Origin: Staphylothermus marinus F1
GTDB lineage: Archaea; Thermoproteota; Thermoprotei_A; Sulfolobales; Desulfurococcaceae
DNA length: 32,000 bases
Assembly: GCF_000015945.1 (NCBI RefSeq)
Contig: NC_009033.1
Span: forward strand, 570,001 to 602,000
Direction of reading: 5' to 3'
The first letter of the stretch is position 1. Every line of letters begins with the position of its first letter. A model generated the notes under the pieces. That model made no database searches. It was not told where the DNA came from and saw only the letters and a program-made list of their open reading frames with translations. The translations under genes and the position numbers were made by a program. Shown one piece after another: positions 5,799 through 24,926 of this stretch.

Positions 5799-5805
5799 TA
5801 TATTT

Positions 5806-6255
5806 TCACCTTTTATCGATTCCGAGAAGTATTCTTAGAGCTCTAGCTGGTCTGAGAATTCCAAGATATTTTTGTTCTCTAAATCTCTCAGTAATTATTC
5901 CCGCCCAATATTTTAAGTCTAAATATGTAAGTGTGTTAAGAGCTTCAATTGCTTGGAGTTTTTTCTTATAAGTTCTCAAATTACTAGTGATAGCGGCGTA
6001 GATTAATACCTTTGCATATGTTTCCCAATTATCTATTGTGAAGGTCATAATTTTTCTGCCGCCTTTCTTTTTGAAGCCGTTTCTAAGAGCATATTGCATT
6101 AGTAATTGAGGATTACATCTAATTTTTACTTCTAATACTCCTCTGCTCCTGGTTGTGCCAGCATAAAATCTTGAAATTCCCTTATTATTCTTAGAATTAG
6201 AATAAATTACTAAGTAATATAGAGGCTTAGCTTCCTCATCAATAGTAAAGCTCAT
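5806..6255 (-). CDS. Hypothetical 149-aa protein, translationally coupled between the DUF499 ATPase and the McrB-like gene
   Basis: Its ATG shares one base with the TAA stop of the upstream ATPase (TAATG at 6253-6257). Its stop lies 7 nt before the McrB-like start. The protein is basic and I recognise no motif. Confidence 0.5.
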   Translation of the reverse strand: MSFTIDEEAKPLYYLVIYSNSKNNKGISRFYAGTTRSRGVLEVKIRCNPQLLMQYALRNGFKKKGGRKIMTFTIDNWETYAKVLIYAAITSNLRTYKKKLQAIEALNTLTYLDLKYWAGIITERFREQKYLGILRPARALRILLGIDKR

Positions 6256-9200
6256 TATTTTCTCCTCACAACTGTTACTTCTATGCCGGCGTATCTAATG
6301 TATTTGTCAAGCATTCTTTTAAGAGTTGAATTAATAATTATTTCTTTTGTAAATTCTGCCTCAAAGCTTCCCTTAACAGATATATTTGAACCCATATAAC
6401 CTAGCAGATCGCTAATAACCTCATAGACAATTACTGGGTCAGCTTGTTTAAATAAAACATTACCCACTCCATACTCACGGCTTTCCACATGTAGTTCCAT
6501 TTTATTAACAATGAATACATTCTCATCTGGTTTATTTACTAATTCATTTAATTCATTAATAAGCTCTAGCACATCTCTATAGTTCTTATTGTTAACTAAG
6601 CTCTTAATACCGATCAATATATCTCCTTTTTCAAAAACCCCTGGTTTCTCAACAATAATGATGCTGGTCTTAGGCTTAACAATTATTATTCCCTCATATG
6701 AATTACCATAATCGTCGATTGCCTTAATCGTTATCAATGTTTGTTGCCTGATCTTTGAACCATTAATTTTGATCCATGTTTTAAATGGCACTTGTCCTTC
6801 AAGAACTCCATGATCTGTTACTACATCACTAGATACGTTAATTTTAATATTACCTCTATAATCTCCTAGAGGTTGAGCCTCAATTCTCACGTCTACGCTA
6901 TCGTCCGGTGAAATCTCAATATATGATGGTTCGACTATCAGGTTTATCCCTGTTCTCAGAATATTTTCCTCCTTAACAATGAAGCCGTCTCTAAGAATTA
7001 TTTCCCAGTCCGGAAACTTTTCGATATCCTTAATTGGATACTTATTGTTTCTGTATATAACGTAGTAGTTTAACTTGAGAATACCCTTATCTTTCCTTGC
7101 CCCATTGTTTTCTTCTATATCCCTCTTGATCTCTTCTAGCATCTCTCTTAGCGCGTCTCGCCAATGCATTATAATAAAACTTTCCCGAATACTTGTTGGC
7201 ACTTCTCCTCTATCCTTGTCAGTAAATGACGTAATATCGCTTGGTGAGTATATGTGTTTAAAGTATCTTCTATTGAACTCGTCTATTAAGGCGATTTCCA
7301 GGTTTGATACACCCTCTTTGATGGCATCTATTATTCTACTTTCTCTTATCATAGGTAGTTCGGGCCTAGTCTTAAAGACGTTGATAACATCTCCAACACT
7401 GATCTTTCTCCCAGGGTTTATCTCAATTTCCACTTTGCTTAAATAAGTCTTTAACGATTCAAAATTTAATGATCTAACTATTTTGCCGATGTTTGGAGAG
7501 CTAAGTGCTGAGACAACTTTTTCGCTAATTGATCTATCAGATGTTGTAGCATATGTTTTCTCAACAATTCTTCTAGAACCCCTAACTACCGGATAATATA
7601 CTTGATCAAAGAAGTTGAGAATATTCGTTAATAAAATGTTCTCGAACACTCTCTTCTGATAAGCTGCAATACTTCTCTCAATATCCCTGATCTCCTTGGC
7701 ATAACCACTATACAGCTCATTAATTCTATCCATAATTATTTCCGCTGCTCTCAGAAGAGCTTGATACTCGAGAAGCGATTCAAGCTTGTCCCTTGTTGAA
7801 ATTGTTACTGCTACAACGGTATTAGCATACGTTCTCTCAATTCCTCTAAACTTATAGATCAGTTCTTCGATCTCCTCTTGCTTATTATATAGTATAGCAA
7901 CCAGTTTATAGTAACTGTTATCGGGAACCTCCGCCTCTGACGCATATTTATAAACTGATATATTCTTTGTATCGAATATTTCAACATAATTAAATTGTTC
8001 CATAGAATAAACACTAGCTTCTCTAGATCTGCCTATCTCGATTAAACGTGAGGTCATTAATTTATGTATATTCTCCATAAGCAGGTTCTCGACATAGCTC
8101 CTGTTTTCTTCTAGGATTCTTTTAGCTTCTCTTCTAATCCATTCCTTGATGGATGCAATTCTAGAATACCAGTATCTATCGGTTGATTCATCGTAATGTA
8201 GGAATACAGTATAGTTGCTGATCTTGATCTCCGTTAATGCATCTCTTATATCTACTGGCTTAAATCTATTGGTTTCGAAGAATTTTGGTTCATAAACCAT
8301 TTGAGCGATTTCTTTGCTTGTTGGAAACACGGGTTCTGCTTTAAGACTATCATAAGGATAGGTTGACAAGAATATTGTTCTTAGAATTATTTTTGTTAAG
8401 TTTCTCTTTGCTGATTCTCTAGGGATTTTCTTATCTAGTGCAATTATTTCATCAATATATATTTTTTGGTAATCACTATAATCTCCCATGAAGAAGAGGC
8501 CTTCAACGCCTAGCTCGACAGGGTCAATGTGCCATGGCATAATCAGTACTGGGTCCTCATTGCTATTCAATAGTTTTCTTAACAGTAGCCTGGATATTCT
8601 CATTAAGAACCTGGTCCTATTACCGGTAACTCTTTCAGCTATTTCCCTGAGCACACTAATATAGGATGGATGGAAGGGATAGGTCTCGCTAATATCTTTT
8701 TCGAGCTTACTAGTATCCCCAAATACCTCCTTGAATTCATGATATGTATTTATGAGTCTGCGGATCTCATCGTTGGCTTCACTAACTCTGACTTCACTGA
8801 AAAGTCTCTTCTTTATAACATTGAAGAGTTCGGTATTCCTAGATATTGGGGCATATACGTTGCCTGCTACACGTAGTAGAGCGTCTAGGAGATCTCTTAC
8901 GAATTCGCTTATTCTCTTATATCTAGGTTGAGGCTCTATTATTCCTTCAGGCTTCTTTTCAGCAGCAATAGTTATTACTAATACATTGTTTGTTGACTCA
9001 ACAGCTTGAGCTAGTCTATCGAAAAACCTAACTACCTCTCTTATATATCCCTCCTTATTCCTATATTTTGATGATAGAATAGAATCTATATAATCAAGAA
9101 TCTCGTCTACAAGAATAACAACTTTGAGTCCCTGCAATAGTTCTTTAAGAACACTTTGATCAGGACATGTCTCGTTTCTATCATCTCTTTCCACAAGCTC

Positions 9201-9677
9201 GTATCTCTTCAATCTATATGCTAGATAACCCCATAAAGTCTTTATTTTACGCGATCCCTTCTCTAATGGTTTTACAGGGCTTGGTGCTAATTTAGAATCC
9301 TTACCATATACAACTACTATTTCAACACCTTTAACATTCCTATATAATTTATAGACCTCATCTGAGAGTAGATGCGTTGAGTCAGGGCTTAAAACAGCGT
9401 GATAAATAGTTAGTAATGTATGCGTCTTACCTCCGCCGAAAAAGGCTATTATTGGATAAACCTTGCGTCCTTTCCCCTCAGTTAGAGTATTCCCGATCTC
9501 CAATAGAATAGTCCTCATACTATCCGTAAGATATGTTCTTTTGAAAAACTCTTTAGGATCCTTATATATTCTAGGAGCTGTACCATAAACAACCTCATAG
9601 ATCTCAGGTGCTAGTTTCTCGTCAAAACTTGGATCTAGAACATCCTTCCTCACAGAAACATGTTGTTTGAAACCCAT
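6255..9677 (-). CDS. Large P-loop ATPase, DUF499 / BrxC(PglY)-like
   Basis: 1140-aa ORF. The N-terminal region DVLDP...LAPEIYEVVYGTAPRIYKDPKEFFKRTYLTDSM is followed by Walker A AFFGGGKTHTLL and Walker B VVILVDEILDY. This is the pattern I associate with DUF499 ATPases (COG1483), which pair with DUF1156 methylases and also occur as BrxC in BREX. Confidence 0.72.
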   Translation of the reverse strand: MGFKQHVSVRKDVLDPSFDEKLAPEIYEVVYGTAPRIYKDPKEFFKRTYLTDSMRTILLEIGNTLTEGKGRKVYPIIAFFGGGKTHTLLTIYHAVLSPDSTHLLSDEVYKLYRNVKGVEIVVVYGKDSKLAPSPVKPLEKGSRKIKTLWGYLAYRLKRYELVERDDRNETCPDQSVLKELLQGLKVVILVDEILDYIDSILSSKYRNKEGYIREVVRFFDRLAQAVESTNNVLVITIAAEKKPEGIIEPQPRYKRISEFVRDLLDALLRVAGNVYAPISRNTELFNVIKKRLFSEVRVSEANDEIRRLINTYHEFKEVFGDTSKLEKDISETYPFHPSYISVLREIAERVTGNRTRFLMRISRLLLRKLLNSNEDPVLIMPWHIDPVELGVEGLFFMGDYSDYQKIYIDEIIALDKKIPRESAKRNLTKIILRTIFLSTYPYDSLKAEPVFPTSKEIAQMVYEPKFFETNRFKPVDIRDALTEIKISNYTVFLHYDESTDRYWYSRIASIKEWIRREAKRILEENRSYVENLLMENIHKLMTSRLIEIGRSREASVYSMEQFNYVEIFDTKNISVYKYASEAEVPDNSYYKLVAILYNKQEEIEELIYKFRGIERTYANTVVAVTISTRDKLESLLEYQALLRAAEIIMDRINELYSGYAKEIRDIERSIAAYQKRVFENILLTNILNFFDQVYYPVVRGSRRIVEKTYATTSDRSISEKVVSALSSPNIGKIVRSLNFESLKTYLSKVEIEINPGRKISVGDVINVFKTRPELPMIRESRIIDAIKEGVSNLEIALIDEFNRRYFKHIYSPSDITSFTDKDRGEVPTSIRESFIIMHWRDALREMLEEIKRDIEENNGARKDKGILKLNYYVIYRNNKYPIKDIEKFPDWEIILRDGFIVKEENILRTGINLIVEPSYIEISPDDSVDVRIEAQPLGDYRGNIKINVSSDVVTDHGVLEGQVPFKTWIKINGSKIRQQTLITIKAIDDYGNSYEGIIIVKPKTSIIIVEKPGVFEKGDILIGIKSLVNNKNYRDVLELINELNELVNKPDENVFIVNKMELHVESREYGVGNVLFKQADPVIVYEVISDLLGYMGSNISVKGSFEAEFTKEIIINSTLKRMLDKYIRYAGIEVTVVRRK

Positions 9678-9708
9678 AGCTTTTATCCCCTTACCATATA
9701 TGTTTTAT

Positions 9709-12700
9709 TTACTTTATGTAGTTATCAATAGTTTTATGAATGGGCTTGGCTGGACCGCATTTAACGCCCATATATTCAAGCATTCTCATGGAGAGCCGTT
9801 GCTCCGGATCGCCTTCGAAATAGCTACAGATAACATATGCTATACCCTTAGCTTCATCAATAAAGCTAGGCCCACTAGGTTGTTCTCGAAGCTTTGAAAC
9901 AAGCTTCTCAAATACGTTTTTATCATATCTAGAAGCATAGTATTCGAGAACATGAAGCGCATCAACACTATTACTTATCCTCGGCTTATCTGGATTAATT
10001 CCTCTACGCTTCTCCAAGAAAACCCTCAGCCTACTTGGTTCGATGCTTAGAGGCGCATTCAACACATACTCCTTCTTATTAGTAGACGGTACTCGCTTCT
10101 CATCTACTATCCTCTTTTTAACCATATCATCCACATCTATGCCTGAAGCAATAGATAATATGGTTATACTGCTAGCATCAAGCTTCTTCTCCTTAGAAAG
10201 AAGTTTACGAGCCGTCTCAGGATCCCTTAGAAACACTAGCTTGAATAAGAGATAGAACAGAGCTTCTGGAGAACCAACATTGAACATAGACGTACCAACT
10301 AAATAATCTATCAATCCGCGAGCAGCAGCGGGGAATACTATTTCACGTATAATTCTGCTAACAGACTCCAGATCTTTTCCATTGCTTTTAATCTCCAGAA
10401 AGTTGCTAAGCTTATTCCTTCTCGCTGGAAACACTATTTTATCATAGCTTGTTACAACTTCTAAAACCCTACCCATTACACCAATAAAAGCATCTAGTCC
10501 CCTATGTTTTTTCCAAATATCCCCTGAATAGTTTCTAGCAACTTCCACCGCCTCACGGTATACATCACTAAAAACACCAACCCGACTACTTTGTGATCTC
10601 TTCCTCCAAACAATGATCAAACTAGTATCCAGACTGCGCTTACCCCTCTTAACAATAGACTGCTTACTCTCAGTATCAAGAGGCCAAGTAGCAGTAATCC
10701 TGAAGCCACCCCTAGCCCAACCAGCCCATAATAGATCCCGCCAAGCATCCGGATCAGTATGATTATAATACGTAACAAGCAACCCATCATCCTTCAAATG
10801 CTCCCTCATAGCTATGAAAGAATCGCTGAGGAGCTCTAAGTAGCGTTCATAAGCATATTTTTCAGCATCCTGATTATTTCCAGCATAATCCCTGTAACGT
10901 CCAGGATTAAAACTAACCTCGCGCTTAGCAAAGAATTCCCACTGAGTACTAATAGGCTTCCAAACAGCACCAACACGTCTAAAGAATAAGTCCCGATGAA
11001 ACATCGGAACAAGCCTACCATTCTCGATATCACACAAGGCACGCTTCAACCAGACATAATAAAAATCACTAAGCTCAGCATAAGGAACATCATCCCTATA
11101 AGGTGGATCAGTAACTATTATATCAAACTTTTCATTACTGAGTTTTCTAAGCATTGTAGCATCATCAAGCATAACTTTAACATTACTAGAATTTTCGGAC
11201 ACTATAGATACAAGATATGTTAAGCCATTATATATGCTCCTTAAATTTCTCGTCCAAGAACCGGTAATGTCTGCGTAAGGAGAAATTTCTCCATAATTCC
11301 AAACCATAGCAATTCCTCTAAACGTTAATGAGCCAGCAACAATTGCGCCCATTAATGTGTCTGCTCTTATAGTCGCTGTAATAGAATTAAACGCTGAATA
11401 TCTTAACAGGGATATTGTAAGATAAGTCATTACCGCTTCCGTATAATTAAATACCGTCTTTTCACTCCAGCCATTCTTGAGCTTTTCTTCTTCTATTTTC
11501 TTGCCAGCTTCTCGTATTAGCTTGACTGTTTTGATTAGGGTTAGGAGTTGGCGTGGGTTAAAGAGTTTATAGAATTTGTCAATACCCCATACAATTGTAT
11601 GATAAGTAGATGAACAGTATGGCTCTATCGGCTCTGTTGGTATGTCTGGGTCTCCCCATATTTGTTTTATTTTTTCTAGTGCTTTCCATAGTTTTTCTTG
11701 GTCTTCTTGTGTTGCTGGCTCGAATTCTAGGTCTTTACCTCTGGTCTTTACCTTGACTAGTATTCTGGGTCTTGCGGGTGCTTTTTTGAGTTCTTCTAGG
11801 CTTATTTCTCCGGACAAGTATTTCTCGAGGAGTTTGTTCCATTGTTTTAGAGCGTATTTGGGGTAGAATTCGACTTTTTTTCTGAGAGATGTTGGCAAAT
11901 TTGATTTATCGGGGTAGTGTTGTCCTGTTTCTGGGTTTATGTATCCTATTTTGTTTCTGCAGTATAGACATTTTGCTTTCTTCTTTTTTGGATCAATGTT
12001 TTTCTCTGGGACTTCAAGCTCTATGGTTTGTTCTCCTCTAGGTATGGTTATTTTATTTGATTTAATTTTGTTCTCGTCAAGTAAGGAGATTTTGTATTTT
12101 TTGTTTACATCTATTACCTCGATATCTACTCTATTGTTTCTTTTTACTGGCTTCATATAAGCTATTCTAGTGTACTTATTATTTTTCTTCACTCTTGCTA
12201 GCCAATAGTTTCCTATTAGCGGTGTATATCTTTTACAATGGGGGCATTGGACTTCCCATGTTCCTATGTATACTGCTATATCTTCGTCATATAGTTCTTT
12301 TAGATCTTGATCATTTTTTAATTGTTCAATAATCCATTTACCCCATTTCTCTACATCCTTAGCCAGGTTTTTCCATTTAGGATCACTAACTGTTTTTAGA
12401 GGATATTCCAGGACTGCTTTCAAGAATACAACTGCTGTTGGCAATAGTTCTACTGCTGTTACTTTTCCCACGCCTAGTCTTAGTGCTTCTAGGGGTATTG
12501 AGCCAAATCCTGCGAAGGGATCTAGCAAACTTGTTTCTTTAAACAATTTCTTTAAACCAGCTAGTTCTCCCTGAAAACTTGGATTAAACCTGTGTGGAGT
12601 ATTCTTGTCTAATCTGAGAATGTTCTGTTTAAACGCTTCTGGATCGATTTTGTCTGCTGGTATTATTGACCCCGCTATTACTGCTCTTGCTGTTATTAAT

Positions 12701-12726
12701 GGTTTACGTGTCCACCAGAAAACCAT
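9709..12726 (-). CDS. DUF1156-type adenine-specific DNA methyltransferase with Zn-ribbon (COG1743-like). The true start is probably upstream of the annotated ATG.
   Basis: 1005-aa ORF. It carries the N-terminal FWWTRKPL motif (the DUF1156 hallmark HxWWARRPL), SAM motif I DPFAGFGSIPLEA, Zn-ribbon cysteines CPHC ... CLYC, and catalytic motif IV IIVTDPPYRDDVPYAELSDFYYVWL. In-frame upstream sequence (12727..12828) encodes 34 more DUF1156-like residues without a canonical start codon; see findings. Confidence 0.85.
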   Translation of the reverse strand: MVFWWTRKPLITARAVIAGSIIPADKIDPEAFKQNILRLDKNTPHRFNPSFQGELAGLKKLFKETSLLDPFAGFGSIPLEALRLGVGKVTAVELLPTAVVFLKAVLEYPLKTVSDPKWKNLAKDVEKWGKWIIEQLKNDQDLKELYDEDIAVYIGTWEVQCPHCKRYTPLIGNYWLARVKKNNKYTRIAYMKPVKRNNRVDIEVIDVNKKYKISLLDENKIKSNKITIPRGEQTIELEVPEKNIDPKKKKAKCLYCRNKIGYINPETGQHYPDKSNLPTSLRKKVEFYPKYALKQWNKLLEKYLSGEISLEELKKAPARPRILVKVKTRGKDLEFEPATQEDQEKLWKALEKIKQIWGDPDIPTEPIEPYCSSTYHTIVWGIDKFYKLFNPRQLLTLIKTVKLIREAGKKIEEEKLKNGWSEKTVFNYTEAVMTYLTISLLRYSAFNSITATIRADTLMGAIVAGSLTFRGIAMVWNYGEISPYADITGSWTRNLRSIYNGLTYLVSIVSENSSNVKVMLDDATMLRKLSNEKFDIIVTDPPYRDDVPYAELSDFYYVWLKRALCDIENGRLVPMFHRDLFFRRVGAVWKPISTQWEFFAKREVSFNPGRYRDYAGNNQDAEKYAYERYLELLSDSFIAMREHLKDDGLLVTYYNHTDPDAWRDLLWAGWARGGFRITATWPLDTESKQSIVKRGKRSLDTSLIIVWRKRSQSSRVGVFSDVYREAVEVARNYSGDIWKKHRGLDAFIGVMGRVLEVVTSYDKIVFPARRNKLSNFLEIKSNGKDLESVSRIIREIVFPAAARGLIDYLVGTSMFNVGSPEALFYLLFKLVFLRDPETARKLLSKEKKLDASSITILSIASGIDVDDMVKKRIVDEKRVPSTNKKEYVLNAPLSIEPSRLRVFLEKRRGINPDKPRISNSVDALHVLEYYASRYDKNVFEKLVSKLREQPSGPSFIDEAKGIAYVICSYFEGDPEQRLSMRMLEYMGVKCGPAKPIHKTIDNYIK

Positions 12727-12923
12727 TTCCCAGAATGAGGGTCTGCCAGGTCCTTTCTCAGCGATTGCTTTTTCCGAGATCTCGAGGCTTGGGAAGGAGG
12801 GAGTTTCTATTAGTTTCTTTTCCAGAATGCTTCACCTATCGTAGTGTTTTTCCTTATATAATAATTTATATTCTGCCTTGTAGATTAATTCTTTTTCCAG
12901 AAAAACTCTATTAGGATCTCGCT

Positions 12924-14051
12924 ATGATCTTTGGTGACCCTGTTTTGAATCCGTGGAAAAATATGCCTGTTCACAGAATATTTACATTTGTAGAGCATGG
13001 TTTATTGCCTGGTATTGTTGGTGAGTTTTTCGATCTAGCCTGGGAGATCGGCTGTAGTCTAATAGTTGATCCCTTTATTGGCGGAGGAGTTGTTGCTGTT
13101 GAAGGGATTAGTAGGGGTTTCAATATTGTGGGGTTAGATGTTAATCCTTGGAGTCTTATCGTTACAAAGGCTAAGACATTAAGACTTAAAGAACCAAGGA
13201 AGATTTTGGATAGATTCTTAGGGATGCTTGAGAATGTAGGTAAGCCATATATTCCTACAAGGAGGCTGGAAAAATACTATGTTCCAGAACACCTAGAAAA
13301 AATAGGTTTAATCAGGGCGGTGATCGAAAATATAAATGATGATCTTAGACTATTACTGCTCACAGTTCTCGGGAGAATAGCTGATGAATACTCTTTTCTC
13401 AAAAGAACTCCTGCCCCAAGATTTAAGGGTAATCCTCCTCGAGGGGATCCTGTGAAGAGATATGTTGAAATATTAGAAGTAGCTCTAAAAGATCTATCCA
13501 ATGCTAAACCCAGAGGATCAGCCATGTTATTACTAGCTGACTCTACCGAATGGCTTCCCGAACATATATGCGGTTTACTAACTAGTCCACCTTTTGCAAA
13601 CAATATTGATTATATAAGGCATACACAGTTACAATTGCTTTGGAGCGGCTTTGCAGTTAATAGTAGAGACCTAGGTTATTGGAGAAACCTACAGCTTCCA
13701 GGCTGTGAAGCAGCCTCTAGAGCGTGGAAGAAGACGAGTAATGATGAAGTAATTAATCAATTAATCAATAATATGGCCCCCAAGTATAGGAAAAGATATG
13801 GTCGTTTCCTCAAACAGTATTTCTACTATATGCAGAAACACATAAATTTATTAGCAGAGAGTCTAGAAGGAATTGCATGGTATACTATTGGAGACAGCTA
13901 CTTGGGAGGAGTATATGTTCCAACACATTTGTTCCTTCAAAGATATGCTGAGAAAAGTGGGTTAAAGACTAAGATAAGGAGGATCAAGGATAGATATTCA
14001 AGAAGTAAAAGGCTAGCATTGTATTTATTAGAAATAATGAATAAGCGATAA
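12924..14051 (+). CDS. N6-adenine/N4-cytosine DNA methyltransferase (motif I before motif IV, SPPF type)
   Basis: 375-aa ORF. Motif I is LIVDPFIGGGVVAVEG...GLDVNPW and motif IV is LLTSPPFANNIDY. It is transcribed divergently from the DUF1156 methylase and converges on the SF1 helicase gene, with 22 bp between the stops. Confidence 0.75.
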   Translation: MIFGDPVLNPWKNMPVHRIFTFVEHGLLPGIVGEFFDLAWEIGCSLIVDPFIGGGVVAVEGISRGFNIVGLDVNPWSLIVTKAKTLRLKEPRKILDRFLGMLENVGKPYIPTRRLEKYYVPEHLEKIGLIRAVIENINDDLRLLLLTVLGRIADEYSFLKRTPAPRFKGNPPRGDPVKRYVEILEVALKDLSNAKPRGSAMLLLADSTEWLPEHICGLLTSPPFANNIDYIRHTQLQLLWSGFAVNSRDLGYWRNLQLPGCEAASRAWKKTSNDEVINQLINNMAPKYRKRYGRFLKQYFYYMQKHINLLAESLEGIAWYTIGDSYLGGVYVPTHLFLQRYAEKSGLKTKIRRIKDRYSRSKRLALYLLEIMNKR

Positions 14052-14073
14052 AAATACATGAGGAACTACTAGG

Positions 14074-15684
14074 TTAAACTATTTTGAATAACTCACGTAT
14101 TATAACACTACCACCATCCTTAAGTAACTCAATACCCTCTATTGTTTTCTCTATGGATTCCCCGGCGATTCTATACTGAGAAATATGTTTGCCCTTATTT
14201 TTAGCATAGTGTGCTGAATGCTTGAGCCGGTCTATATTTCCTATTATTATCATTAATAATCTATGCCTGCTTAACTGTACATTTAAAACTTGGTGCTCAC
14301 TAAAATACATTGTTTCAGGCCTAGTAGTGGCGAATGAATAATATGAGAAGTCATCTCCGGCCAACCATTCTTTTCCAAGCATAGTCACTATAACGTCGTC
14401 TTCGCCTCCAATTATTGATTGGACAGTTGCATATCTAAGGTGATCAGTGCTTATACCGGTTTCTATTAGTTTTTTCTTCAAATAATATCCTGTACTATAA
14501 GCTAAATCACTATATGGTGCTGTTAAGCTTATTCCAAAAGCTGGATTGCCTCCATGCAATATTATAGATATTATTGAGAGATAGAGACCTGTTAAGTAGC
14601 CTAAATACGCCCTGCTTCTATCATAAGTATCTCCAGGTGGGAATTTTCTTGTTTCGAAAACAATTAATGGTATACCATTTATTAGTGCTTCATCAATTGT
14701 TTCAGTAACACGTTTAACAGTAGATTTTGAAAGATCTAGTATTTTCCCCATTTTTGTTTTAGATTTATCTAGTACATCCTCTAAGCCGCCGGCCAATAAC
14801 TTATTATATCTAACTTTGAAATGCTCTTTTGCTTTGAGTTTTCCTTCATAAAAACCTCTGCTTATCGGCGTTTCAGTGGGCCCCGGTAATCTAAAAGTTG
14901 TGTCGAGAAACTTATAGTATTCTTCTAAATTATGTCTTTCAAGTACGGATTTAATATAATTCATTAACAATGGTATACGAAATGTTTTAAATTCTGCTGC
15001 AATAGAAATTGCTTGTTGAGGATCTCCAAGAACGATCATCGACTTAGGATATGTTTCCTCAGGATTCCTAATAATGCTTCTCGCTATTGGCAGGAAAACT
15101 CTGAAAAAGGGAGTTTTACTAGCCTCGTCAACAATAAATCTTATCTCATCAGGTTTTTCAACTAGTTTCGGAGTTATTCTCTGATATTCTGTTGCAAACA
15201 CGAACCTGACATTTCTAGGATCAATACTTTTCATTAGCTTTTTGATCTCGTTGCACGGTAGAATTTTATTATTTATTGATACATCCCTAAACTCTTTTTT
15301 ACATGGCTCAATTTTTGATCCATAAACACGTATTAGATCAAGAATTACATTAACATCATAGCCCTTATAAAACAAGTTTGCAACAAATCTTGTAAAAGCC
15401 TCAACAACAAGATGATTTGTCGGAGCAATATATAGATAGAGAATTTTCCCCTTATAACTAAGAACTTCATCTAATATTTCTCTAGTACCTAAATCGAAAA
15501 CACTAGTCTTACCTGTTCCTGGAGGGCCTTGGACAGCGCCTAATCCTAGGTAGCCCTTAGCTACTTTCTTGAATAACCTGATTGCTTCAATCTGTGATCC
15601 TTCAGCCTCCCTCTCTATACAATTCCTATTACGTGAACACTCGTAAGCCTTACGAAGCGCATCCGATAAGTGATACATTACCAT
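14074..15684 (-). CDS. Superfamily 1B (Upf1/Dna2-like, AAA_11/AAA_12) helicase
   Basis: 536-aa ORF. Motif I is VQGPPGTGKTS, motif II is FIVDEASK, motif III is VLGDPQQ, motif V is TVQSIIGGEDDVIV and motif VI is LNVQLSRHR. Its start overlaps the upstream nuclease gene by 7 nt. Confidence 0.85.
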   Translation of the reverse strand: MVMYHLSDALRKAYECSRNRNCIEREAEGSQIEAIRLFKKVAKGYLGLGAVQGPPGTGKTSVFDLGTREILDEVLSYKGKILYLYIAPTNHLVVEAFTRFVANLFYKGYDVNVILDLIRVYGSKIEPCKKEFRDVSINNKILPCNEIKKLMKSIDPRNVRFVFATEYQRITPKLVEKPDEIRFIVDEASKTPFFRVFLPIARSIIRNPEETYPKSMIVLGDPQQAISIAAEFKTFRIPLLMNYIKSVLERHNLEEYYKFLDTTFRLPGPTETPISRGFYEGKLKAKEHFKVRYNKLLAGGLEDVLDKSKTKMGKILDLSKSTVKRVTETIDEALINGIPLIVFETRKFPPGDTYDRSRAYLGYLTGLYLSIISIILHGGNPAFGISLTAPYSDLAYSTGYYLKKKLIETGISTDHLRYATVQSIIGGEDDVIVTMLGKEWLAGDDFSYYSFATTRPETMYFSEHQVLNVQLSRHRLLMIIIGNIDRLKHSAHYAKNKGKHISQYRIAGESIEKTIEGIELLKDGGSVIIRELFKIV

Positions 15685-17459
15685 GTCTTATTCTCCCCCT
15701 TTAATAAGCCCTCGATAAACAAGACACTAAACATTGCATCTCTGTATTTTTTACGAATTTTCTCCGCAGTTTTAGCTAATATATTGAGTTCAGCGACTTT
15801 ACGGCTACCGCGGTGGAATGCGTCGATTGCTTGTAGTTCTAGCTGGGTTAAATCAACGTTTATCTCGACCCCTATTATTTTCTCAAGATACTCTCGATTA
15901 CGGAATGTAGTTCTTCTTAGTATTTCAAGTTGTAGTCTCGATGGAATATTAGGGGCGGCGACGTGAACGTATACTTTATCTCCCTTCCTTGAAGGCTCTA
16001 TCTCTATTTCTTCGACTCTACCATGGAAACTTAGTCTGAGAAGCGGGTTATTCACATAAGGATCATTAAAAATTATTAGAACGGGTTTTCCTTCTCTTAA
16101 CGTTTTAAGCTTGATCGGTTCTGTGGATTTCTCGTATTCTCTAACTTTTCTCTCAAGGATTATTTCATATGGTTCACTTAGTGATGCTTTTTCAAAGTAA
16201 TCTATACGATTTCCGCTCTCACCCAGTGTATTTTCCAGCCTAATTATGGCTTCAATTAGTCTTTCTATATTATAATTGTTTGCTGTGTATAGATTGTATA
16301 GCTCTTTTATGGGTTTTTGAGCATTCTCTCTAATCTTATATATGGCGTGTCTAGCTCTATAGGCTATTCTATCTAGTAGTGTCCAGTCTTCATATGTTTT
16401 CATGTAGAATTTACATGCTTCCTTATACCTACAAATTCTGCAGGGATATTTGTTTCCATATTTAACAGGATTACTGCGTGGCAAGTCTTTTGGCGCCCGG
16501 CGGAAAGCAGATATTTTTTGTCCATGCAATCCTCTTATGCTACAGATTTTAGCAGTATTTTTATCTATGTAATCTGTATACTCTGTTATTGTTAAGACTA
16601 GGTGTTCTGCAGATAATAATATGTTCCTAATTAATTCATATTTATCAATTGTCTTATCAGCTGTTCTAAAAGTATCCGCTATACTGTATACCGTAATTTT
16701 TCCAGTAGGTCTTATCACTATTGGAACAACGTCTTCTCTATCTCTAACAGCACCAACAGGATCTTCGTGTCCAAGTCTTTCAGCCTCCATTAAAGCATAA
16801 GTATAAGCTTGTGCAATCTCCCAGTTTTCTGGCGTTTTACCCGTTTTCCACTCAATAACAAGAGCTTTTCTAGAAATAGGATCTTCTATAACGGCATCAA
16901 TGATTCCTACAACATGAAACCTATAACTATACATGAATAGTTCTGTAAATAATCTAAGACTTCCCTCATTCAATCCTATTCTACTTATAAAAATAGGCAT
17001 TACTCTAGATAAGCTATAAATCATTTTAGTAGCGTACGTAATAGATTCATTAACTAGTTTATCTTCAAACTCTTCAATAGCTTCTTTATTCACTATTCCA
17101 GCTTCTACTAAATCCTTGTATGTATTGTTGACATATGATTCTATAGTTGAATATGGAAGTCTTCCCTTAATAAGATCAACTCCATTCGGACCATAAAATA
17201 TCTGCGGTAAAGCCACAGCTAACAACTGATGAGTCAATCTCCCCCTCCCAGGTATTATAGATACAAAATCAGTTACTGCACCAATAGCCTCAGCTAAACG
17301 AGCAGCATAAATACAGAAAGCAGCACCTCGAGCAATATTGCTAGCCCTAACTAGATGAGATGTGCCAGATAAAATCTTTTGTACTCCACTACCACAGAGT
17401 TCTTGATCAGTTAGTTCAATAATGTATTCTTCAATAACCAAAACAATCCTACCCTTCAA
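15678..17459 (-). CDS. RecB/Cas4/Dna2-type PD-(D/E)xK nuclease with predicted 4Fe-4S cysteine cluster and a ~240-aa C-terminal extension
   Basis: 593-aa ORF. It has an N-terminal Cys (ELCGSG), the core IIDAV...LVIEWKTGK (D...ExK), the QxxxY motif QAYTYALM, and C-x2-C-x5-C (PCRICRYKEAC). This cysteine arrangement is typical of Cas4, AddB and Dna2 nuclease domains. Confidence 0.7.
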   Translation of the reverse strand: MKGRIVLVIEEYIIELTDQELCGSGVQKILSGTSHLVRASNIARGAAFCIYAARLAEAIGAVTDFVSIIPGRGRLTHQLLAVALPQIFYGPNGVDLIKGRLPYSTIESYVNNTYKDLVEAGIVNKEAIEEFEDKLVNESITYATKMIYSLSRVMPIFISRIGLNEGSLRLFTELFMYSYRFHVVGIIDAVIEDPISRKALVIEWKTGKTPENWEIAQAYTYALMEAERLGHEDPVGAVRDREDVVPIVIRPTGKITVYSIADTFRTADKTIDKYELIRNILLSAEHLVLTITEYTDYIDKNTAKICSIRGLHGQKISAFRRAPKDLPRSNPVKYGNKYPCRICRYKEACKFYMKTYEDWTLLDRIAYRARHAIYKIRENAQKPIKELYNLYTANNYNIERLIEAIIRLENTLGESGNRIDYFEKASLSEPYEIILERKVREYEKSTEPIKLKTLREGKPVLIIFNDPYVNNPLLRLSFHGRVEEIEIEPSRKGDKVYVHVAAPNIPSRLQLEILRRTTFRNREYLEKIIGVEINVDLTQLELQAIDAFHRGSRKVAELNILAKTAEKIRKKYRDAMFSVLFIEGLLKGENKTW

Positions 17460-17706
17460 CTCCTACAAATAATTTCACTATTAAAACCATTTATAAAAAT
17501 GTATTAGGAAATGATAAACCATAGAAGTATAGAAACTAAATTATAAATATGATAGAATAGTAATACGAGGTAATGAAATATTAATTCATTAAACCTATGC
17601 AGAATCATAAGCACTTAACCATATTATTTTCACTTTTTATATTAGAATATATTAGAATACAATATTGATATGATTCAAACGCATAAATTCATGTGGAGGG
17701 ATAAAT

Positions 17707-18024
17707 TTGTTAGAAATTTCCGATATTATCTTAACTAGCATATTAAAAGGGCTAAAGAGAAAGCCTACCCTCCTAGTTCATTTTCTATTTGCAACTATTT
17801 TAGCAACAATCCTGAAAATTTTAGTAAAGCTTATTGTTAATTACTTTGTTAATTATTTCCATATTTCACCGTCAAATTATCAAGTTGTACTTTCCGGGGC
17901 TATTTTAACTGGGATATTAATGTTGTCCGCGTTAGAGCTATATATACATTTATGGAACAATATAAGGAGCTTTCTATACGAAAACCTCTACAAGAAATCA
18001 CCTGAAGAATCACTACTTAAGTAA
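17707..18024 (+). CDS. Small hypothetical membrane protein
   Basis: 105-aa ORF with two or three hydrophobic helices (LLVHFLFATILATILKILV, VVLSGAILTGILMLSALELYI). It follows an AT-rich 250-bp intergenic region. No recognisable motif. Confidence 0.35.
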   Translation: MLEISDIILTSILKGLKRKPTLLVHFLFATILATILKILVKLIVNYFVNYFHISPSNYQVVLSGAILTGILMLSALELYIHLWNNIRSFLYENLYKKSPEESLLK

Positions 18025-18068
18025 TTCGAAGAAGCTTTTAAAAATATCAATTATTCATTCAAGAAATA

Positions 18069-18890
18069 ATGGATAAAACTCTCTATGACTTCTTAAATAG
18101 AAGCATACTAGAGAGAGTGTGGCCAATAACTTTTGGACTTCTGTTATTCTATTACTTAGCTTGGGGGATCAGGCATCTATTTTAACAAGATCCGTGATAG
18201 GCCTCTTGATGGTAGGAAGAAGTTGCAGAAGCTTTTATTCCTTGTTGAACACTTAGATCTAGAGTCTGGTAGGTTGTCTAAGTCAAGGGGTTTGACCGGC
18301 TATAAACTTTGTTGTTTAGAGTTATGGACCTTTCTCTAAAGATGTGTATAATGATCTTAGGATGCTTGTTAGAGAAGGATTAGTGGAGGAGAGAGTGGAG
18401 ACTATTCGCTTATCTAGATACTATAGTTGTTTTGGAAGTTATGGAAATAATGGTTGTTTTGAAGACTTTGGAGCTTGGGTTCGATTTATAAACCCCCTAC
18501 AATATAATGGTTTAAAACTGCAGATGAAGGGCTCTAAGTGGTCTGTGTGGAGCCCCGATAGCCCCCTCGATGAAGGGATGAAAACCCGACACAAGAGGGG
18601 GAAGCCCGTGCAAACAGTTCCAAAAATAACCGTAGTTTCCAAAAGATAATGCACGGGCAACCACTTGGAGCCAAGACTTATCACTATACACTTACATCGA
18701 TGGTGGTATGCCTCGGAGAATATACTATTATAGAGTATTAGATGAGAGTAGAGTCCCAAGACCGCCCCGCGAAGTAGAGGATAAAATTAAATTTGTGATC
18801 AAAAAATATGGTTCTCTCTCGCCTATGGAGTTAGAATCACGTGTTAACGAGCTTTTAAGACTTACTCCAAAGAAAAAAGTAGAATACTAG
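18069..18890 (+). pseudogene. Decayed SocA/Panacea (DUF4065)-like gene, broken by frameshifts, an in-frame TAG and a ~250-bp insertion
   Basis: The pieces lie in three frames. First comes MDKTLYDFLNRSILERVWPITFGLLLFYYLAWG.., then ..IYFNKIRDRPLDGRKKLQKLLFLVEHLDLESG...GLTGYK. After a TAG this continues as SYGPFSKDVYNDLRMLVREGLVEERVETIRLS, then the inserted element. The gene resumes as ..DGGMPRRIYYYRVLDESRV...PMELESRVNELLRLTPKKKVEY (18708..18890). The KLQKLLF and YGPFS..VY motifs are characteristic of DUF4065-type proteins. Confidence 0.4.
18417..18666 (+). repeat. Copy A of a conserved noncoding element (candidate promoter-bearing small RNA or non-autonomous mobile element)
   Basis: Aligns by eye with 28323..28507. 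It shares the left end GATACTAT(A/G)GTTGTTTTG, a TTTATAAA box (18485..18492) about 30 nt upstream of a conserved core, and the core TGCAGATGAAGGGCTC.AAGTGGTCT.TGTGGAGCCCC.ATAGCC...ATGAAG...GAAAACCCGAC...AGGGGG.AGCC..TGCAAACA...GCACGGGCA..CACTT. Hairpins are GGGCTC(18529-34)/GAGCCC(18550-55) and CCCGTGC(18605-11)/GCACGGG(18651-57). Differences between the copies include 1-nt indels, so conservation is not protein-coding. Confidence 0.45.
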
Positions 18891-19450
18891 GGTAGATCTA
18901 TCGATGAGTACCTAGAGACAGAAGGACTTGCATAGAATTGTTGTAACGAAGAAGAAACCTGTATATGTATCGGAGAATCTCGCATTAAGACCGGCAACAC
19001 AGAATTCAAAATTAATTCGAATGATATATAAACAGTTGGCTTCTTTAAATGATGCAATAAAGAATTTTTCTTGTGTCTTTCAAGCATTAATTATTTTAGT
19101 GCTCATAGCGAATTAAAGCAAGAAGCCAATAACTATGCAAGATCATTAAAAAGCAAATTAAATATTGATTCCCGGAAAATTCTAAGACCAACATCGAGTA
19201 CTGGTTTATTTTCTCCTAATATTACATATGTTATGGATCAGCGAAATTATCCCAGTCACATAAAACTGTATGTTGAACCAGAAGTCATGATTCGGGGGGT
19301 TGTGAGGCAGTTGGATTATGCTATAGTGGATCATAGGGATCCAGCCATAGTAGAGAAATAGGCAATACTGTGCATAAATATCGACGATTTTTATGAAGTA
19401 ACTATTGTCTATAATATTCTATTTCTCTACAGCACTAAAGGTACTACTTA

Positions 19451-20653
19451 TTATTTGAAGCCTATTTTGAACATTTTTTCTGGGTTGGTTAGTCCTGCTA
19501 GGCTTAGTGCTAGTAGTGGGTTTTTGGTTTTGTTTGTTAGTTCTGTGTAGAGTTGTTGTTGAACTATGTAGAGTAGTTCTTTTTTTATCATGCTCATTGT
19601 GTCTACTTTGTCTATGGGGTCTGGTACTCCATTGTTTCCCGTTATATATGATAGGTATGATACTATATTGTCTAGACTGGTTTTTCTGGTTGGGTAGGCT
19701 TCGATTTTTGTTGCTATCATGAAGTATGTTGGGTGTATTGCTTTGTATGTTGCTACTCTAACATTCTTTGTTGTAGGAGCTGCATTGATTACTCTTGTTA
19801 TCCACTCTCTTCTCTCTATAAGCGATCTTATTCTGCGTGGTTCGAGGTTGGCTCGGTGTTTCTCAATATATTTGTTTAAGTAATTTAATATACTAGTATA
19901 CGATCCTATATCGATCCACTCCCCACTATTCAGTATGAATGTTGAAAATGCTTTATCGTTAACCTTGATCATGGGGTTGTCGAGGACAACTTGTAGATCC
20001 ATACCATAAACTCTCTTAATAACTCCTACAATAACAGTATTTGTTTCTTCAGCAAGCTCTAGTATTTGTTGTGTTAAGTCTAGGATCCTATTATAAGCTT
20101 TAATTATAACGCTTTCACTATTCCTCTTACCAACATATCCTGGAGGGATTCGTGGGAAAAGTTCTCCATCTAGGAGAACAATGTCTAAGTCAAGTAATCC
20201 ATTCTTCTTCTTCACAAGCACTTCTCTAATAAATTCTCTCTCAACAATTTTCGAGTAGGGAGTCCCTATTTTCTCGTCTCCCTGTATAAACCTTACATAC
20301 CCAACAGTACCTGTTTTTTCTTCTCCACCAAGGCTTCTGCATCCATAGAATAAGTGAGACCTAGTTATAACGAGCAGTTTCCCCCCAGTAAGTTCTAGTG
20401 GTGGTGAGGTGAAGCTTGTATCTAATGCTAAGCAACAAGGCTTCACATCACTGCTGAGAATTTCTATTTTCTTCAACATTTTCTTCTCAACAAGTATTTT
20501 TCTAAAATAATCTTTTTCCTCAAGTAAATAATTCGTGTTCAAATACTTTATGATCTTCTCTGCTTCCTCCCTAACACCCTTAAAAACTATAGATGTAAGC
20601 GGTTCTCCCTGTTCAGGAGCGGGAAATAATTCTTCTAGGGATTCTTCACTCAA
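19451..20653 (-). CDS. nurA: NurA-like 5'-3' nuclease
   Basis: 400-aa ORF. NurA-type motifs are CLALDTSF (catalytic Asp region), DIVLLDGELFP and VIVGVIKRV. Its start overlaps the upstream HerA-like gene by 8 nt. Confidence 0.7.
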   Translation of the reverse strand: MSEESLEELFPAPEQGEPLTSIVFKGVREEAEKIIKYLNTNYLLEEKDYFRKILVEKKMLKKIEILSSDVKPCCLALDTSFTSPPLELTGGKLLVITRSHLFYGCRSLGGEEKTGTVGYVRFIQGDEKIGTPYSKIVEREFIREVLVKKKNGLLDLDIVLLDGELFPRIPPGYVGKRNSESVIIKAYNRILDLTQQILELAEETNTVIVGVIKRVYGMDLQVVLDNPMIKVNDKAFSTFILNSGEWIDIGSYTSILNYLNKYIEKHRANLEPRRIRSLIERREWITRVINAAPTTKNVRVATYKAIHPTYFMIATKIEAYPTRKTSLDNIVSYLSYITGNNGVPDPIDKVDTMSMIKKELLYIVQQQLYTELTNKTKNPLLALSLAGLTNPEKMFKIGFK

Positions 20654-22232
20654 CCGTTCTCACCTTTATAAGTATGGGTATTCTAAGCGGGTTCATGAGC
20701 CCTGCCACGAAGAATTCTCGCTTACCCAGAATTGCTAAGGTGTTTTCACTTATACCTGATAAGTCCATGTAGCCTTTTAACTCGTTGAAGTCTCCTGGTG
20801 TTTGGAGTTTGCTGAACAACCAAGTATTAATATTGCCTCTGATCTCGGGGTCTATATCTATTATTCTCTGCGTTGCTAAGAGAACTCCAAGACCCCATTT
20901 ACGCCCTTCCCTAGCAATCCTCGTTATAGCTCTATGTGATACACCACAACTCCTACAAGCATAATTATGTGCTTCATCTATAACTACAAGTGTATTGATT
21001 GGTTCTCGTTTCTCCTCTATAATTCTCCACAACTCATTTATAACTGAGGACACTATATATCTACGCGCCTCAAGATCTTCTGTGCTTAAATCAACAACTA
21101 CAAGCCTATTATTACCAGCATACCCAACTATATCTCGAGGCAACATATCTCGTTTATTAAGTGATTCAAAAAATTGTTTGCCAAGATAAACATCTAAAGC
21201 TATTCCAAGCCTGATCTTAGAACTATCTCTAGCCCTCATATTCTGCAGGGTTCTAATTAGTTGCTCTTTAAAACTAGTAATATCCCATACAATATTCTTT
21301 TCAGCAAGTATTTCTTGAAGCCTAGAATAATCTATCTTATTTAGGAATTCTTGAAAAGAAGGTGTTTTGGGAACTAGTGTTTTCTGCCTACCACCACTGC
21401 TACTACCTATAAGTTCTTGGAGGAGTTCTGGATGTTTTTCACGTATATAGTTGTATATATATGATAGTAGGGAGACCATTATGTATGGTTCATAGGTGTT
21501 CCTGTTAAGACCTGTTCTATAAAGGATCATGTCTGTGATCAAGCTTATATCTAGTACTGTACGAGAACCTTCAACCACATTGTCTTTGTAGAACACACTA
21601 TAATCCATCCCAGTATGATCAAAGACTATTATGTTATAGTTTGTCTTAGCCAAAACCTCATCTATAAACGCTTTAACAAGCCTCGACTTACCAGTACCAG
21701 TAGCACCCACAACACCTATATGATAAGGAATCCCCCGTGGATCGAGGGGGATCTCAATACCACTATACTTATGAACACCAATAACAAGCCCCCCGCCAAG
21801 CTCAAGGCTTAGATCCGTTGGAGACTCAACAACATACACTTTAGAACCAGGATTTGGAGGCAATTGAGGCTCAACCACTCCATTCTCAGAAATAACACCA
21901 ATAATCGAGACATAGCCAGAACTATGTGGAAGAGTACCAGTCTCAACAAGATCAGGATTATCAACATAACTAGTTCTCTTCCTAGAATCGAGGAAAGGCT
22001 CATAACGCCTAATCAACCTTAAAACACCGAGAAACCTCATACTCCTCCGGGAATCATCAACAACTACAAGTTGCTCCTCCTTAGCATAATGCTCAACACG
22101 ATCCCAAATAATAACTGGAGCATAAGCAGTACTAGACCCACTACCTATAAGACCAATAAGCTTCAAACACAACTCACCCCCAACAATAATATAAACATAT
22201 ATAAAACAAATTATTAACACTCCAATCCACAA
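20646..22232 (-). CDS. herA: HerA-like (FtsK-HerA superfamily, DUF87) hexameric ATPase/translocase
   Basis: 528-aa ORF. Walker A is IGVVGATGTGKSRLV and Walker B is LVVIDEAHNY. The first ~22 codons (MWIGVLIICFIYVYIIVGG) lie in an AT-rich promoter-like stretch. A more likely start is the TTG at 22166, preceded by GGTGAG (22173-22178, minus strand) and an upstream TATA-like TTATATAT near 22196-22205. Confidence 0.85.
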   Translation of the reverse strand: MWIGVLIICFIYVYIIVGGELCLKLIGLIGSGSSTAYAPVIIWDRVEHYAKEEQLVVVDDSRRSMRFLGVLRLIRRYEPFLDSRKRTSYVDNPDLVETGTLPHSSGYVSIIGVISENGVVEPQLPPNPGSKVYVVESPTDLSLELGGGLVIGVHKYSGIEIPLDPRGIPYHIGVVGATGTGKSRLVKAFIDEVLAKTNYNIIVFDHTGMDYSVFYKDNVVEGSRTVLDISLITDMILYRTGLNRNTYEPYIMVSLLSYIYNYIREKHPELLQELIGSSSGGRQKTLVPKTPSFQEFLNKIDYSRLQEILAEKNIVWDITSFKEQLIRTLQNMRARDSSKIRLGIALDVYLGKQFFESLNKRDMLPRDIVGYAGNNRLVVVDLSTEDLEARRYIVSSVINELWRIIEEKREPINTLVVIDEAHNYACRSCGVSHRAITRIAREGRKWGLGVLLATQRIIDIDPEIRGNINTWLFSKLQTPGDFNELKGYMDLSGISENTLAILGKREFFVAGLMNPLRIPILIKVRTVE

Positions 22233-24905: not shown

Positions 24906-24926
24906 CGCCCCTAAACATATAGTTTT

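Follow-up and report, generated by a model that had tools for sequence, protein, structure and literature searches.

What does a nuclease-helicase pair that recalls Dna2 do beside DNA methyltransferase genes in an archaeon? The question is raised by Smar_0579 and Smar_0578, two overlapping genes of Staphylothermus marinus F1 that lie within the 32,000-nucleotide (nt) stretch of DNA analysed here (contig NC_009033.1 of NCBI RefSeq assembly GCF_000015945.1, positions 570,001 to 602,000 of the forward strand); we call this whole stretch the window, and positions are counted from its first letter. Smar_0579 (15678..17459, minus strand), an open reading frame (ORF) of 593 amino acids (aa), codes for a Cas4/RecB-type PD-(D/E)XK nuclease with a four-cysteine iron-sulphur (Fe-S) motif, and Smar_0578 (14074..15684, minus strand), an ORF of 536 aa, for a Upf1/Dna2-like superfamily 1B (SF1B) helicase core made of domains 1A and 2A. 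A first-pass annotation of the window had taken them for a two-subunit nuclease-helicase immunity module; the Dna2-like nature of the pair and its accessory defence context have stood, but the module is not self-contained, since methylases or a DndC-like enzyme are its conserved partners. Our preferred reading, to which we give a probability of about 60%, is that the pair serves as the DNA-degrading effector of a modification-based, restriction-modification (R-M)-like cassette of the Hma or “BREX-related” (BR) type, where it would replace the HmaA Snf2-nuclease, and that it is portable between self-marking modules.

In S. marinus, the proposed cassette would consist of five genes, coding for a DUF499 ATPase, a DUF1156 methyltransferase (MTase) of the N6-methyladenine (m6A) type, the nuclease, the helicase, and a dedicated small MTase. 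The small MTase gene, Smar_0577 (12924..14051, plus strand), is convergent with the helicase gene and separated from it by a 22-nt gap; its product matches the MTase_II model of PADLOC (3e-14) and a DNA MTase family of PHROG (3e-21). Divergent from it is Smar_0576 (9709..12726, minus strand), which encodes an HmaB-like DUF1156 MTase with the N6-adenine-type motif TDPPY, recognised by Pfam DUF1156, by PADLOC MTase_II (2e-229) and HmaB (5e-48), and by NCBIfam DUF1156_antiphage. It is followed by Smar_0575 (6255..9677, minus strand), coding for an HmaC-like ATPase of the STAND/ORC-like kind (Pfam DUF499, E-value 0, 1361 bits; PADLOC HmaC, 2.5e-46). Smar_0575 to Smar_0579 were assigned by exact-sequence match, and all five carry hypothetical or generic labels at NCBI. 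The first-pass annotation had placed the pair between two methylases; in fact, the two adjacent methylase genes, Smar_0577 and Smar_0576, both lie downstream of the helicase gene, on the same side, and a third methylase gene (29441-30601) is 12 kb away from the pair.

We compared the loci of related nucleases by their gene neighbourhoods and by tblastn across all fetched loci. The closer relatives, with 33-49% identity to the window nuclease, form what we call group A, made up of the window and 11 non-redundant loci with enough flanking sequence. DUF499, DUF1156, nuclease, and helicase genes are found together in all 11 of these loci, as in the window, and the DUF1156 and DUF499 genes, which adopt three positions or orientations relative to the trio of nuclease, helicase, and small MTase, are never missing. 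The small MTase gene adjoins the helicase gene in every group-A locus whose contig extends that far (10/10), its product being 42-50% identical between distant loci. The identity matrices of the nuclease, the helicase, the DUF1156 protein, and the DUF499 protein yield the same clusters, with Spearman coefficients of 0.76 between nuclease and helicase and of 0.53-0.67 between either of them and either DUF499 or DUF1156; for the DUF499 protein against nuclease and helicase, the coefficients are 0.62-0.67. In two metagenome-assembled genomes (MAGs), from Aeropyrum (locus L016, 3368-15140) and from the Acidilobaceae (locus L018, ~3400-15000), the block consists of exactly the five genes, flanked by EF-1alpha/S7/BFN-domain ORF genes and by S12/NusA/RpoA genes, normally a contiguous transcription/translation cluster. 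The presence of exactly five genes between housekeeping genes in both MAGs indicates that the unit is delimited and accessory. When flanking direct or inverted att-like repeats were looked for at these two cassettes, short matches at chance level were all that appeared, and there was no integrase.

Some group-A loci also carry an additional cassette made of an ABC-ATPase gene (AAA_15/AAA_21) and a small ORF, located between the DUF1156 and nuclease genes in locus L012 (5917-7717) and between the small MTase and DUF1156 genes in locus L001 (9446-11327). ABC-ATPase cassettes are characteristically embedded between hma genes (bioRxiv 10.1101/2024.01.29.577857), and the resemblance of those in L012 and L001 to the embedded Hma cassettes is further support for a kinship with Hma.

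Hma unites a DUF499 protein, a DUF1156 protein, and a Swi2/Snf2 helicase that is usually fused to a PD-(D/E)XK or HKD nuclease, and it has recently been renamed the DUF499-centred “BREX-related” system (PMC12839542). The parts of Hma, or BR Type-1, are the HmaA Snf2-nuclease, the HmaB DUF1156 MTase, and the HmaC DUF499 ATPase (PMC12839542, PMC8565338); according to the 2026 survey, the helicase of all BR systems is of the Swi2/Snf2 kind (PMC12839542), and no mention of Staphylothermus, Cas4, or SF1 in this context was found in supplements of that survey. We looked at what accompanies DUF1156 elsewhere, in a metagenome scan seeded with DUF1156 and covering the best 80 of 495 hits, ranked against the DUF1156 protein of the window. 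Neither the pair nor the small MTase occurs in any of these 80 loci, and a protein with Snf2, Helicase_C, and NOV_C domains is encoded in 46 of them; of the 32 loci that reach 12 kb or more, 30 have it. In the closest DUF1156 clade (39-50% identity to the window protein), the order is DUF1156, DUF499, a small ORF in some cases, then Snf2-NOV_C. Conversely, tblastn with five canonical Snf2-NOV_C helicases matched neither the window nor any of 17 loci with the nuclease-helicase pair, and no window ORF has a SNF2 domain of Pfam. The Snf2 helicase is, thus, present in 0 of 11 group-A loci against 46 of 80 DUF1156-seeded loci (Fisher p = 2e-4). Effector swapping is common in defence systems, and such a complementary distribution of the Snf2 helicase and the pair is the one expected if a non-homologous helicase-nuclease had displaced the effector. 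The first-pass annotation had not caught that the pair takes the place normally held in Hma/BR by the Snf2-nuclease helicase.

Two further observations concern the genes beyond DUF499 in the window. A 149-aa ORF (5806..6255, minus strand), the start of which abuts the DUF499 stop, has no Pfam or NCBIfam match; it weakly resembles (E 5e-5; 24% identity along 93 aa) an ORF of 152 aa that separates the DUF499 gene from the Snf2 helicase gene in a metagenome locus (L036, 18627-19085), and the DUF1156/DUF499 operon may, on this similarity, include it as a small accessory gene. In canonical loci, the gene after DUF499 is that of the Snf2 helicase; in the window, McrBC-like genes (860-5798, minus strand) are found at this place: an AAA_5 GTPase gene (4152-5798) overlaps an ORF of 433 aa in which a faint PD-(D/E)XK signal is seen (2867-4168), and a second AAA_5 protein (860-2482) has an N-terminal match to EVE, a modified-base reader.

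More distant relatives of the nuclease, with 26-29% identity, form group B, which includes Thermoplasma acidophilum, a Thermoplasmata MAG, Vulcanisaeta, Pyrobaculum sp. WP30, and Nitrososphaerota. Their loci are devoid of DUF499, DUF1156, and small MTase genes, and a gene for a DndC-like phosphoadenosine phosphosulphate (PAPS) reductase adjoins the pair in all seven with enough flanking sequence. For the five group-B loci that were scanned, PADLOC DndC scores range from 1e-22 to 1e-36; the T. acidophilum copy also matches NCBIfam DndC (4e-21), and the Nitrososphaerota copy is known from its Pfam PAPS_reduct annotation. The constant partner of the pair is, across both groups, a DNA-modification gene of varying type. 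The coupling to a DndC-like enzyme in group B suggests that the pair is a portable effector, able to join up with self-marking modules of different kinds.

Other genes of the group-B loci deserve a mention. Vulcanisaeta (L017, 629-10233) and Pyrobaculum sp. WP30 (L021, 5642-18403) share, around the pair, a protein of 527-543 aa, a class-I S-adenosylmethionine-dependent MTase of 385-429 aa, and a cysteine-containing protein of 170-174 aa, together with the DndC-like gene; in Pyrobaculum sp. WP30, the helicase gene precedes the nuclease gene. T. acidophilum (L024, 10615-11826) and the Thermoplasmata MAG (L020, 13406-14584) have, between the helicase and DndC-like genes, an ORF of ~400 aa with no family match, which is followed in L020 by an HNH_2 endonuclease gene (15886-16662).

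The two genes of the pair are found where the first-pass annotation had put them, and the 7-nt overlap it had reported is indeed there: ATGGTAA holds both the start codon of the helicase gene (ATG, 15684-15682) and the stop codon of the nuclease gene (TAA, 15680-15678). A Shine-Dalgarno-like GGGGGAG (15693-15699) lies 8 nt 5' of the helicase ATG. Overlap and GGGGGAG together make a typical layout for translational coupling, so Smar_0578 is probably coupled to the nuclease gene. Which codon starts the nuclease is ambiguous: the ORF finder retains the TTG at 17459 (593 aa) and NCBI the TTG at 17441 (587 aa, MVIEEY...), the latter agreeing better with where the homologues begin. A candidate archaeal TATA box, TTTTTATAA, can be read at 17491..17499 (minus strand), 31 nt upstream of the first of these codons and 49 nt upstream of the second. 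The ~2 kb (17460-19450) separating the nuclease gene from the NurA gene are AT-rich (31% GC at 17001-18000) and contain only ORFs of at most 105 aa without Pfam match; this region may be degraded or non-coding. A methylase or other gene hidden in it is not supported, as none of its ORFs had a Pfam match.

The nuclease motifs listed in the first-pass annotation (IIDAV, IEWKTGK, QAYTY, and PCRICRYKEAC) are all present in the 593-aa protein, and the catalytic D/E/K residues, without the conservation of which its reading was to be abandoned, are kept in an alignment of 22 homologues reaching down to 26% identity. No homologue departs from D188, W204, K205, Q217 and Y221 (the QxxxY motif), C49, C340, C343, or C349; at position 203, either E or D is found, and the conservation of C22 is ~90%. 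At motif level, Smar_0579 is, thus, a predicted RecB-type PD-(D/E)XK nuclease with a four-cysteine Fe-S motif, as in Dna2. It matches Pfam PDDEXK_1 above the gathering cut-off (E 1.8e-5), and PADLOC Cas4-like models match it weakly. The C-terminal 240 residues, of which the fold could not be guessed at first, are densely conserved (R370, E378, P383, R418, D420, G457-K-P-V460, E532, D536, D546, R550). In the AlphaFold2 (AF2) model (predicted local distance difference test score, pLDDT, 85.8; predicted template modelling score, pTM, 0.88), this part begins with four helices (346-407), goes on with a beta domain of six strands (418-532), and closes with a long helix (538-565), and the N-terminal 165 residues are all-helical, with no visible oligonucleotide/oligosaccharide-binding (OB) fold. 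As modelled, Smar_0579 is a nuclease over residues ~1-355 and, over ~355-565, a helical linker that leads to a beta-barrel of six strands and then to a conserved, long helix. With Foldseek against the PDB, mouse Dna2 (5eax_A) is its best match (E 2e-7, with an alignment of 587 columns for a model of 593 residues) and the only one below 1e-3; AddB comes second (E 1.5e-3), followed by SETX/Aquarius, Cas4, and MGME1. A likeness to the Dna2 barrel/stalk may be read from the modelled beta domain 418-532 and from the span of the alignment over 587 columns. Sequence searches of the nuclease against the PDB, with the single sequence as with a HMMER profile, returned nothing meaningful and no Dna2.

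The assignment of Smar_0578 to Upf1/Dna2-like helicases, already made in the first-pass annotation, was confirmed. Pfam AAA_11 scores above the gathering cut-off and AAA_12 below it; a single-sequence search against PDB sequences found nothing, and only the profile of 46 homologues succeeded, reaching Upf1 at 1e-12. Motifs I, II, III, and VI are invariant in these 46 homologues. The AF2 model (pLDDT 92) has Dna2 (5eaw_A) as top PDB fold match, with an E-value of 1.5e-16. Smar_0578, thus, has an SF1B Upf1-like helicase core, as Dna2 does. Only ~45 residues precede motif I, which fits a barrel/stalk part supplied by the nuclease polypeptide.

Taken together, the models of Smar_0579 and Smar_0578 support, at fold level, a split-Dna2 architecture, i.e., a two-subunit Dna2-like machine. 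No sequence-level homology to Dna2 was detected by HMMER against PDB sequences, so the architecture is not supported at that level; a PADLOC scan of the pair returned Cas4-like and MkoA/MkoC models only, with no hit named Nhi, so that no link of the pair to Nhi or to Dna2 proper appeared at sequence level. An exhaustive HMMER search with the nuclease profile against 1.84 billion cluster representatives gave 107 hits (E at or below 1e-3, fragments included), all shorter than 800 aa (107/107), with full-length members of 550-736 aa; the 157 helicase homologues all measure 368-572 aa. No fused nuclease-helicase was found in either set. Among 185,579 species genomes, we found nine nuclease loci, all archaeal and mostly in thermophilic lineages, from Aeropyrum, Acidilobaceae, Vulcanisaeta, Pyrobaculum, Desulfurococcales, Thermoplasmata, and Bathyarchaeota. 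The nuclease family is small, always split, confined to archaea, and patchy across unrelated phyla. Whether the pair is accessory or housekeeping can be answered in favour of the former, as it is rare, patchy, and carried on a discrete block between housekeeping genes in two MAGs.

The small MTase family is similarly narrow: ~40 homologues in 5.8 billion clusters, the next MTases being at E 2.5e-6. Many of these homologues lie on contigs that agree in length with contigs of helicase homologues, and in an Archaeoglobales MAG, the locus tags are adjacent. The motif alignment shows DPFxGxG (motif I) and TSPPF/Y (motif IV) without any variation. Among MTases, SPPF/Y is found more typically in N4-cytosine enzymes, the DPPY of DUF1156 being of the N6-adenine type; Smar_0577 may, therefore, have N4-cytosine specificity, which we offer as a lead rather than as a determination. 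The sister species S. hellenicus (proteins P0024 and P0248) has an intact helicase (88% identity) and an annotated small MTase that is truncated (247 aa, 66% coverage); no NCBI record was returned for the S. hellenicus nuclease. These records hint that the cassette may be decaying in that species.

How could such a cassette work? From domain content, conservation, and gene linkage, all observed, we infer a complex of the two proteins, its polarity, its trigger, and its defence phenotype. One of the two MTases, DUF1156 or small, or the two together, would mark host DNA. The DUF499 ATPase, as proposed for Hma/BR, would recognise unmarked incoming DNA, together with the DUF1156 MTase, and the nuclease-helicase would be recruited or loaded at a free end or nick. 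The SF1B motor would then move 5'->3' on single-stranded DNA and pass the strand on to the Fe-S nuclease, which would degrade it processively in the manner of Dna2. In the distant clade, the same pair would be coupled to a DndC-like modification enzyme instead. An R-M-like class is suggested solely by the way in which the pair stays linked to MTase or DndC-like genes.

Several points weigh against the pair being a swapped Hma/BR-type effector. The related loci are phylogenetically non-independent, and the DUF1156-seeded scan was not exhaustive. The identity pattern of the small MTase correlates weakly with those of the other four genes (Spearman 0.17-0.29), just the closest locus pairs agreeing with the clusters of the other genes. 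The structural match to Dna2 is moderate (template modelling scores of 0.41 and 0.58), and Dna2 is barely better than IGHMBP2 and Upf1 as a fold match of the helicase, these two being only about tenfold weaker. Lastly, group B has the pair without DUF499 or DUF1156, so the pair may not need them. This last point also speaks for another explanation, which we consider unlikely: nuclease, helicase, and small MTase would form an autonomous three-gene, ATP-dependent R-M-like system (compare Type III Mod/Res, with a split Res), and DUF1156/DUF499 would be a separate Hma, helicase-less or degenerate, that travels with it or acts in synergy. Indeed, group B couples the pair to a DndC-like modifier only, the small MTase always adjoins the helicase gene and belongs to a family of ~40 members apparently confined, for the most part, to the cassette, and UvrD-Cas4 fusions are known as ancillary partners of Type III R-M systems (PMC5704561). 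However, DUF1156 and DUF499 accompany the pair in 11/11 loci, in three arrangements and down to ~35% nuclease identity in the local-alignment matrix, with divergence clusters congruent with those of the pair; the Snf2 helicase, otherwise near-universal, is missing exactly in these loci, and the inserted block is made up of exactly these five genes in two MAGs. 

The window is also rich in Type IV-like genes (McrB-like AAA_5, EVE-AAA_5), and GmrSD genes occur near some related loci, which would suit a modification-dependent (Type IV-like) or abortive effector directed against modified or aberrant invader DNA, the adjacent methylases belonging to other systems. We find this improbable: the only neighbour that both clades keep throughout is a modification gene, the hallmark of a restriction activity against which modification protects rather than of one that depends on it, and neither protein has a recognisable modified-base reader domain. 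Still less probable is a housekeeping Dna2 orthologue, active in Okazaki-fragment processing or end resection together with HerA-NurA. The Dna2-like fold of both proteins and the location of HerA and NurA genes 2 kb away would fit such a role, but the family is tiny (107 hits in 1.84 billion representatives, 9 hits in 185,579 species genomes) and patchy across archaeal phyla, the pair is embedded in defence genes and forms part of a discrete block between housekeeping genes in two MAGs, its small MTase partner looks truncated in S. hellenicus, and other loci have no HerA or NurA nearby. As for a CRISPR-associated Cas4 working with the two CRISPR (clustered regularly interspaced short palindromic repeats) arrays of the window (22270-23339 and 27053-28118), the weak hits of Cas4 models are outweighed by a score of 18 bits for TIGR00372 cas4 against a cut-off of 65, by a protein three times the size of Cas4 with a Dna2-like C-terminal part, by the lack of cas1 and cas2 in the window, and by the lack of cas genes or cas-type Pfam families in the related neighbourhoods examined, where CRISPR arrays were not searched for; we give it the lowest credence of all. 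Both the housekeeping Dna2 and the Cas4 were rejected on context and distribution.

The genes beyond the pair complete the picture of the window. The HerA-like ATPase (528 aa) and the NurA-domain protein (400 aa) are encoded by overlapping genes (19451-22232, minus strand) that adjoin a CRISPR array and have no Mre11 or Rad50 gene beside them; they may be a defence-type pair instead of a repair operon. The two arrays, on the plus (22270-23339) and minus (27053-28118) strands, have 17 repeats each, both are assigned to Rfam family CRISPR-DR27, and the pdxS/pdxT genes (24282-25988) lie between them, in a window without cas genes. Two ORFs within the first array (22934-23416 and 23263-23664) are probably spurious. 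Beyond the second array, on the minus strand, a PaREP1/HEPN-like protein with a ribbon-helix-helix (RHH) N-terminus (28765-29292) stands beside the third methylase, an N6_N4 DNA methylase (29441-30601, E 3e-30).

More tentatively, as we regard this broader claim as slightly less likely than its opposite, the pair may represent an unnamed, archaea-specific, portable family of restriction effectors, which would have displaced HmaA in one Hma/BR lineage (five genes, two MTases) and which, with a DndC-like enzyme, would make up a second, wholly undescribed modification-restriction system. In the literature that could be searched, we found no description of a Cas4/Dna2-like plus SF1B pair associated with DUF499/DUF1156 or with DndC; for the nuclease, the helicase, and the small MTase, there is no curated family in NCBIfam, and Pfam offers generic domains only. 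The logic of an MTase, an ATPase, and a helicase-nuclease is already known, and what is most novel is the DndC-linked clade and the split, Dna2-like architecture. Hma/BR would be extended by a lineage with a non-homologous effector, a natural experiment from which to learn what the effector receives from the DUF499 ATPase and the DUF1156 MTase. A compact, thermostable, two-subunit Dna2-like machine, with the nuclease-barrel apart from the motor, could ease the dissection of how the threading nuclease and the SF1B motor are coupled. Archaeal genomes are poor in recognised defence systems; our results point to an unrecognised DndC-linked one in model archaea such as T. acidophilum, and naming the family would improve archaeal annotation.

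How does the pair compare with known systems? With Hma/BR, for which the published model is an ATPase, an MTase, and, as effector, a helicase-nuclease (PMC12839542), the window shares a DUF499 STAND/ORC-like ATPase and a DUF1156 N6-type MTase, 27-31% and 39-50% identical to the canonical ones, respectively, and the cassettes tolerate embedded ABC-ATPase genes. The Swi2/Snf2 (superfamily 2) helicase with NOV_C or PD-(D/E)XK nuclease is absent here, however, and in its stead, we find a non-homologous SF1B helicase, a separate Cas4-type nuclease, and a second, dedicated small MTase. The group-B loci recall BREX (bacteriophage exclusion) type 4, Dnd, and Ssp, in that a PAPS-reductase/DndC-like enzyme is paired with restriction-type genes, but they lack DndD/SspC/BrxC, PglZ, and DndFGH, and their effector is the split Dna2-like pair. 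UvrD-Cas4 fusions, described as ancillary partners of Type III R-M or of Dcm/Vsr (Hudaiberdiev et al. 2017, PMC5704561), likewise combine a Cas4-like pfam12705 nuclease with an SF1 helicase and are genomically tied to DNA MTases (PMC5704561). Their helicase is of the SF1A UvrD-like kind and N-terminally fused, whereas ours is separate; they are found in bacteria and mesophilic archaea, without a beta-barrel part and without DUF499/DUF1156. AddAB/AdnAB are two-subunit helicase-nucleases with a RecB-type nuclease bearing an Fe-S “iron staple”, and AddB is the second-best fold match of the nuclease, but they are devoted to housekeeping recombination repair, have helicase-like and nuclease domains in both subunits, and use SF1A motors, which Smar_0578 does not have, being SF1B (AAA_11/AAA_12, Upf1-like). 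Nhi of Staphylococcus also puts a nuclease and an SF1B-type helicase to use in defence; it is, however, a single polypeptide, bacterial, stand-alone, and without a modification partner.

There remains Dna2 itself, the best PDB fold match of both proteins, with what would be, in the models, the same order of parts: Fe-S PD-(D/E)XK nuclease, beta-barrel/stalk, SF1B (Upf1-like) helicase (PDB 5EAX, 5EAW, 5EAN). Here, in contrast, the chain is divided after the barrel into two polypeptides, and a rare family in an accessory defence context stands opposite an enzyme of replication and repair. Judging from the predicted models, the pair would be the closest prokaryotic structural counterpart of the nuclease-barrel-helicase layout of Dna2, and it may bear on the origin of that enzyme, either by fusion of a two-gene defence operon or, in the opposite direction, by fission of a Dna2-like gene.

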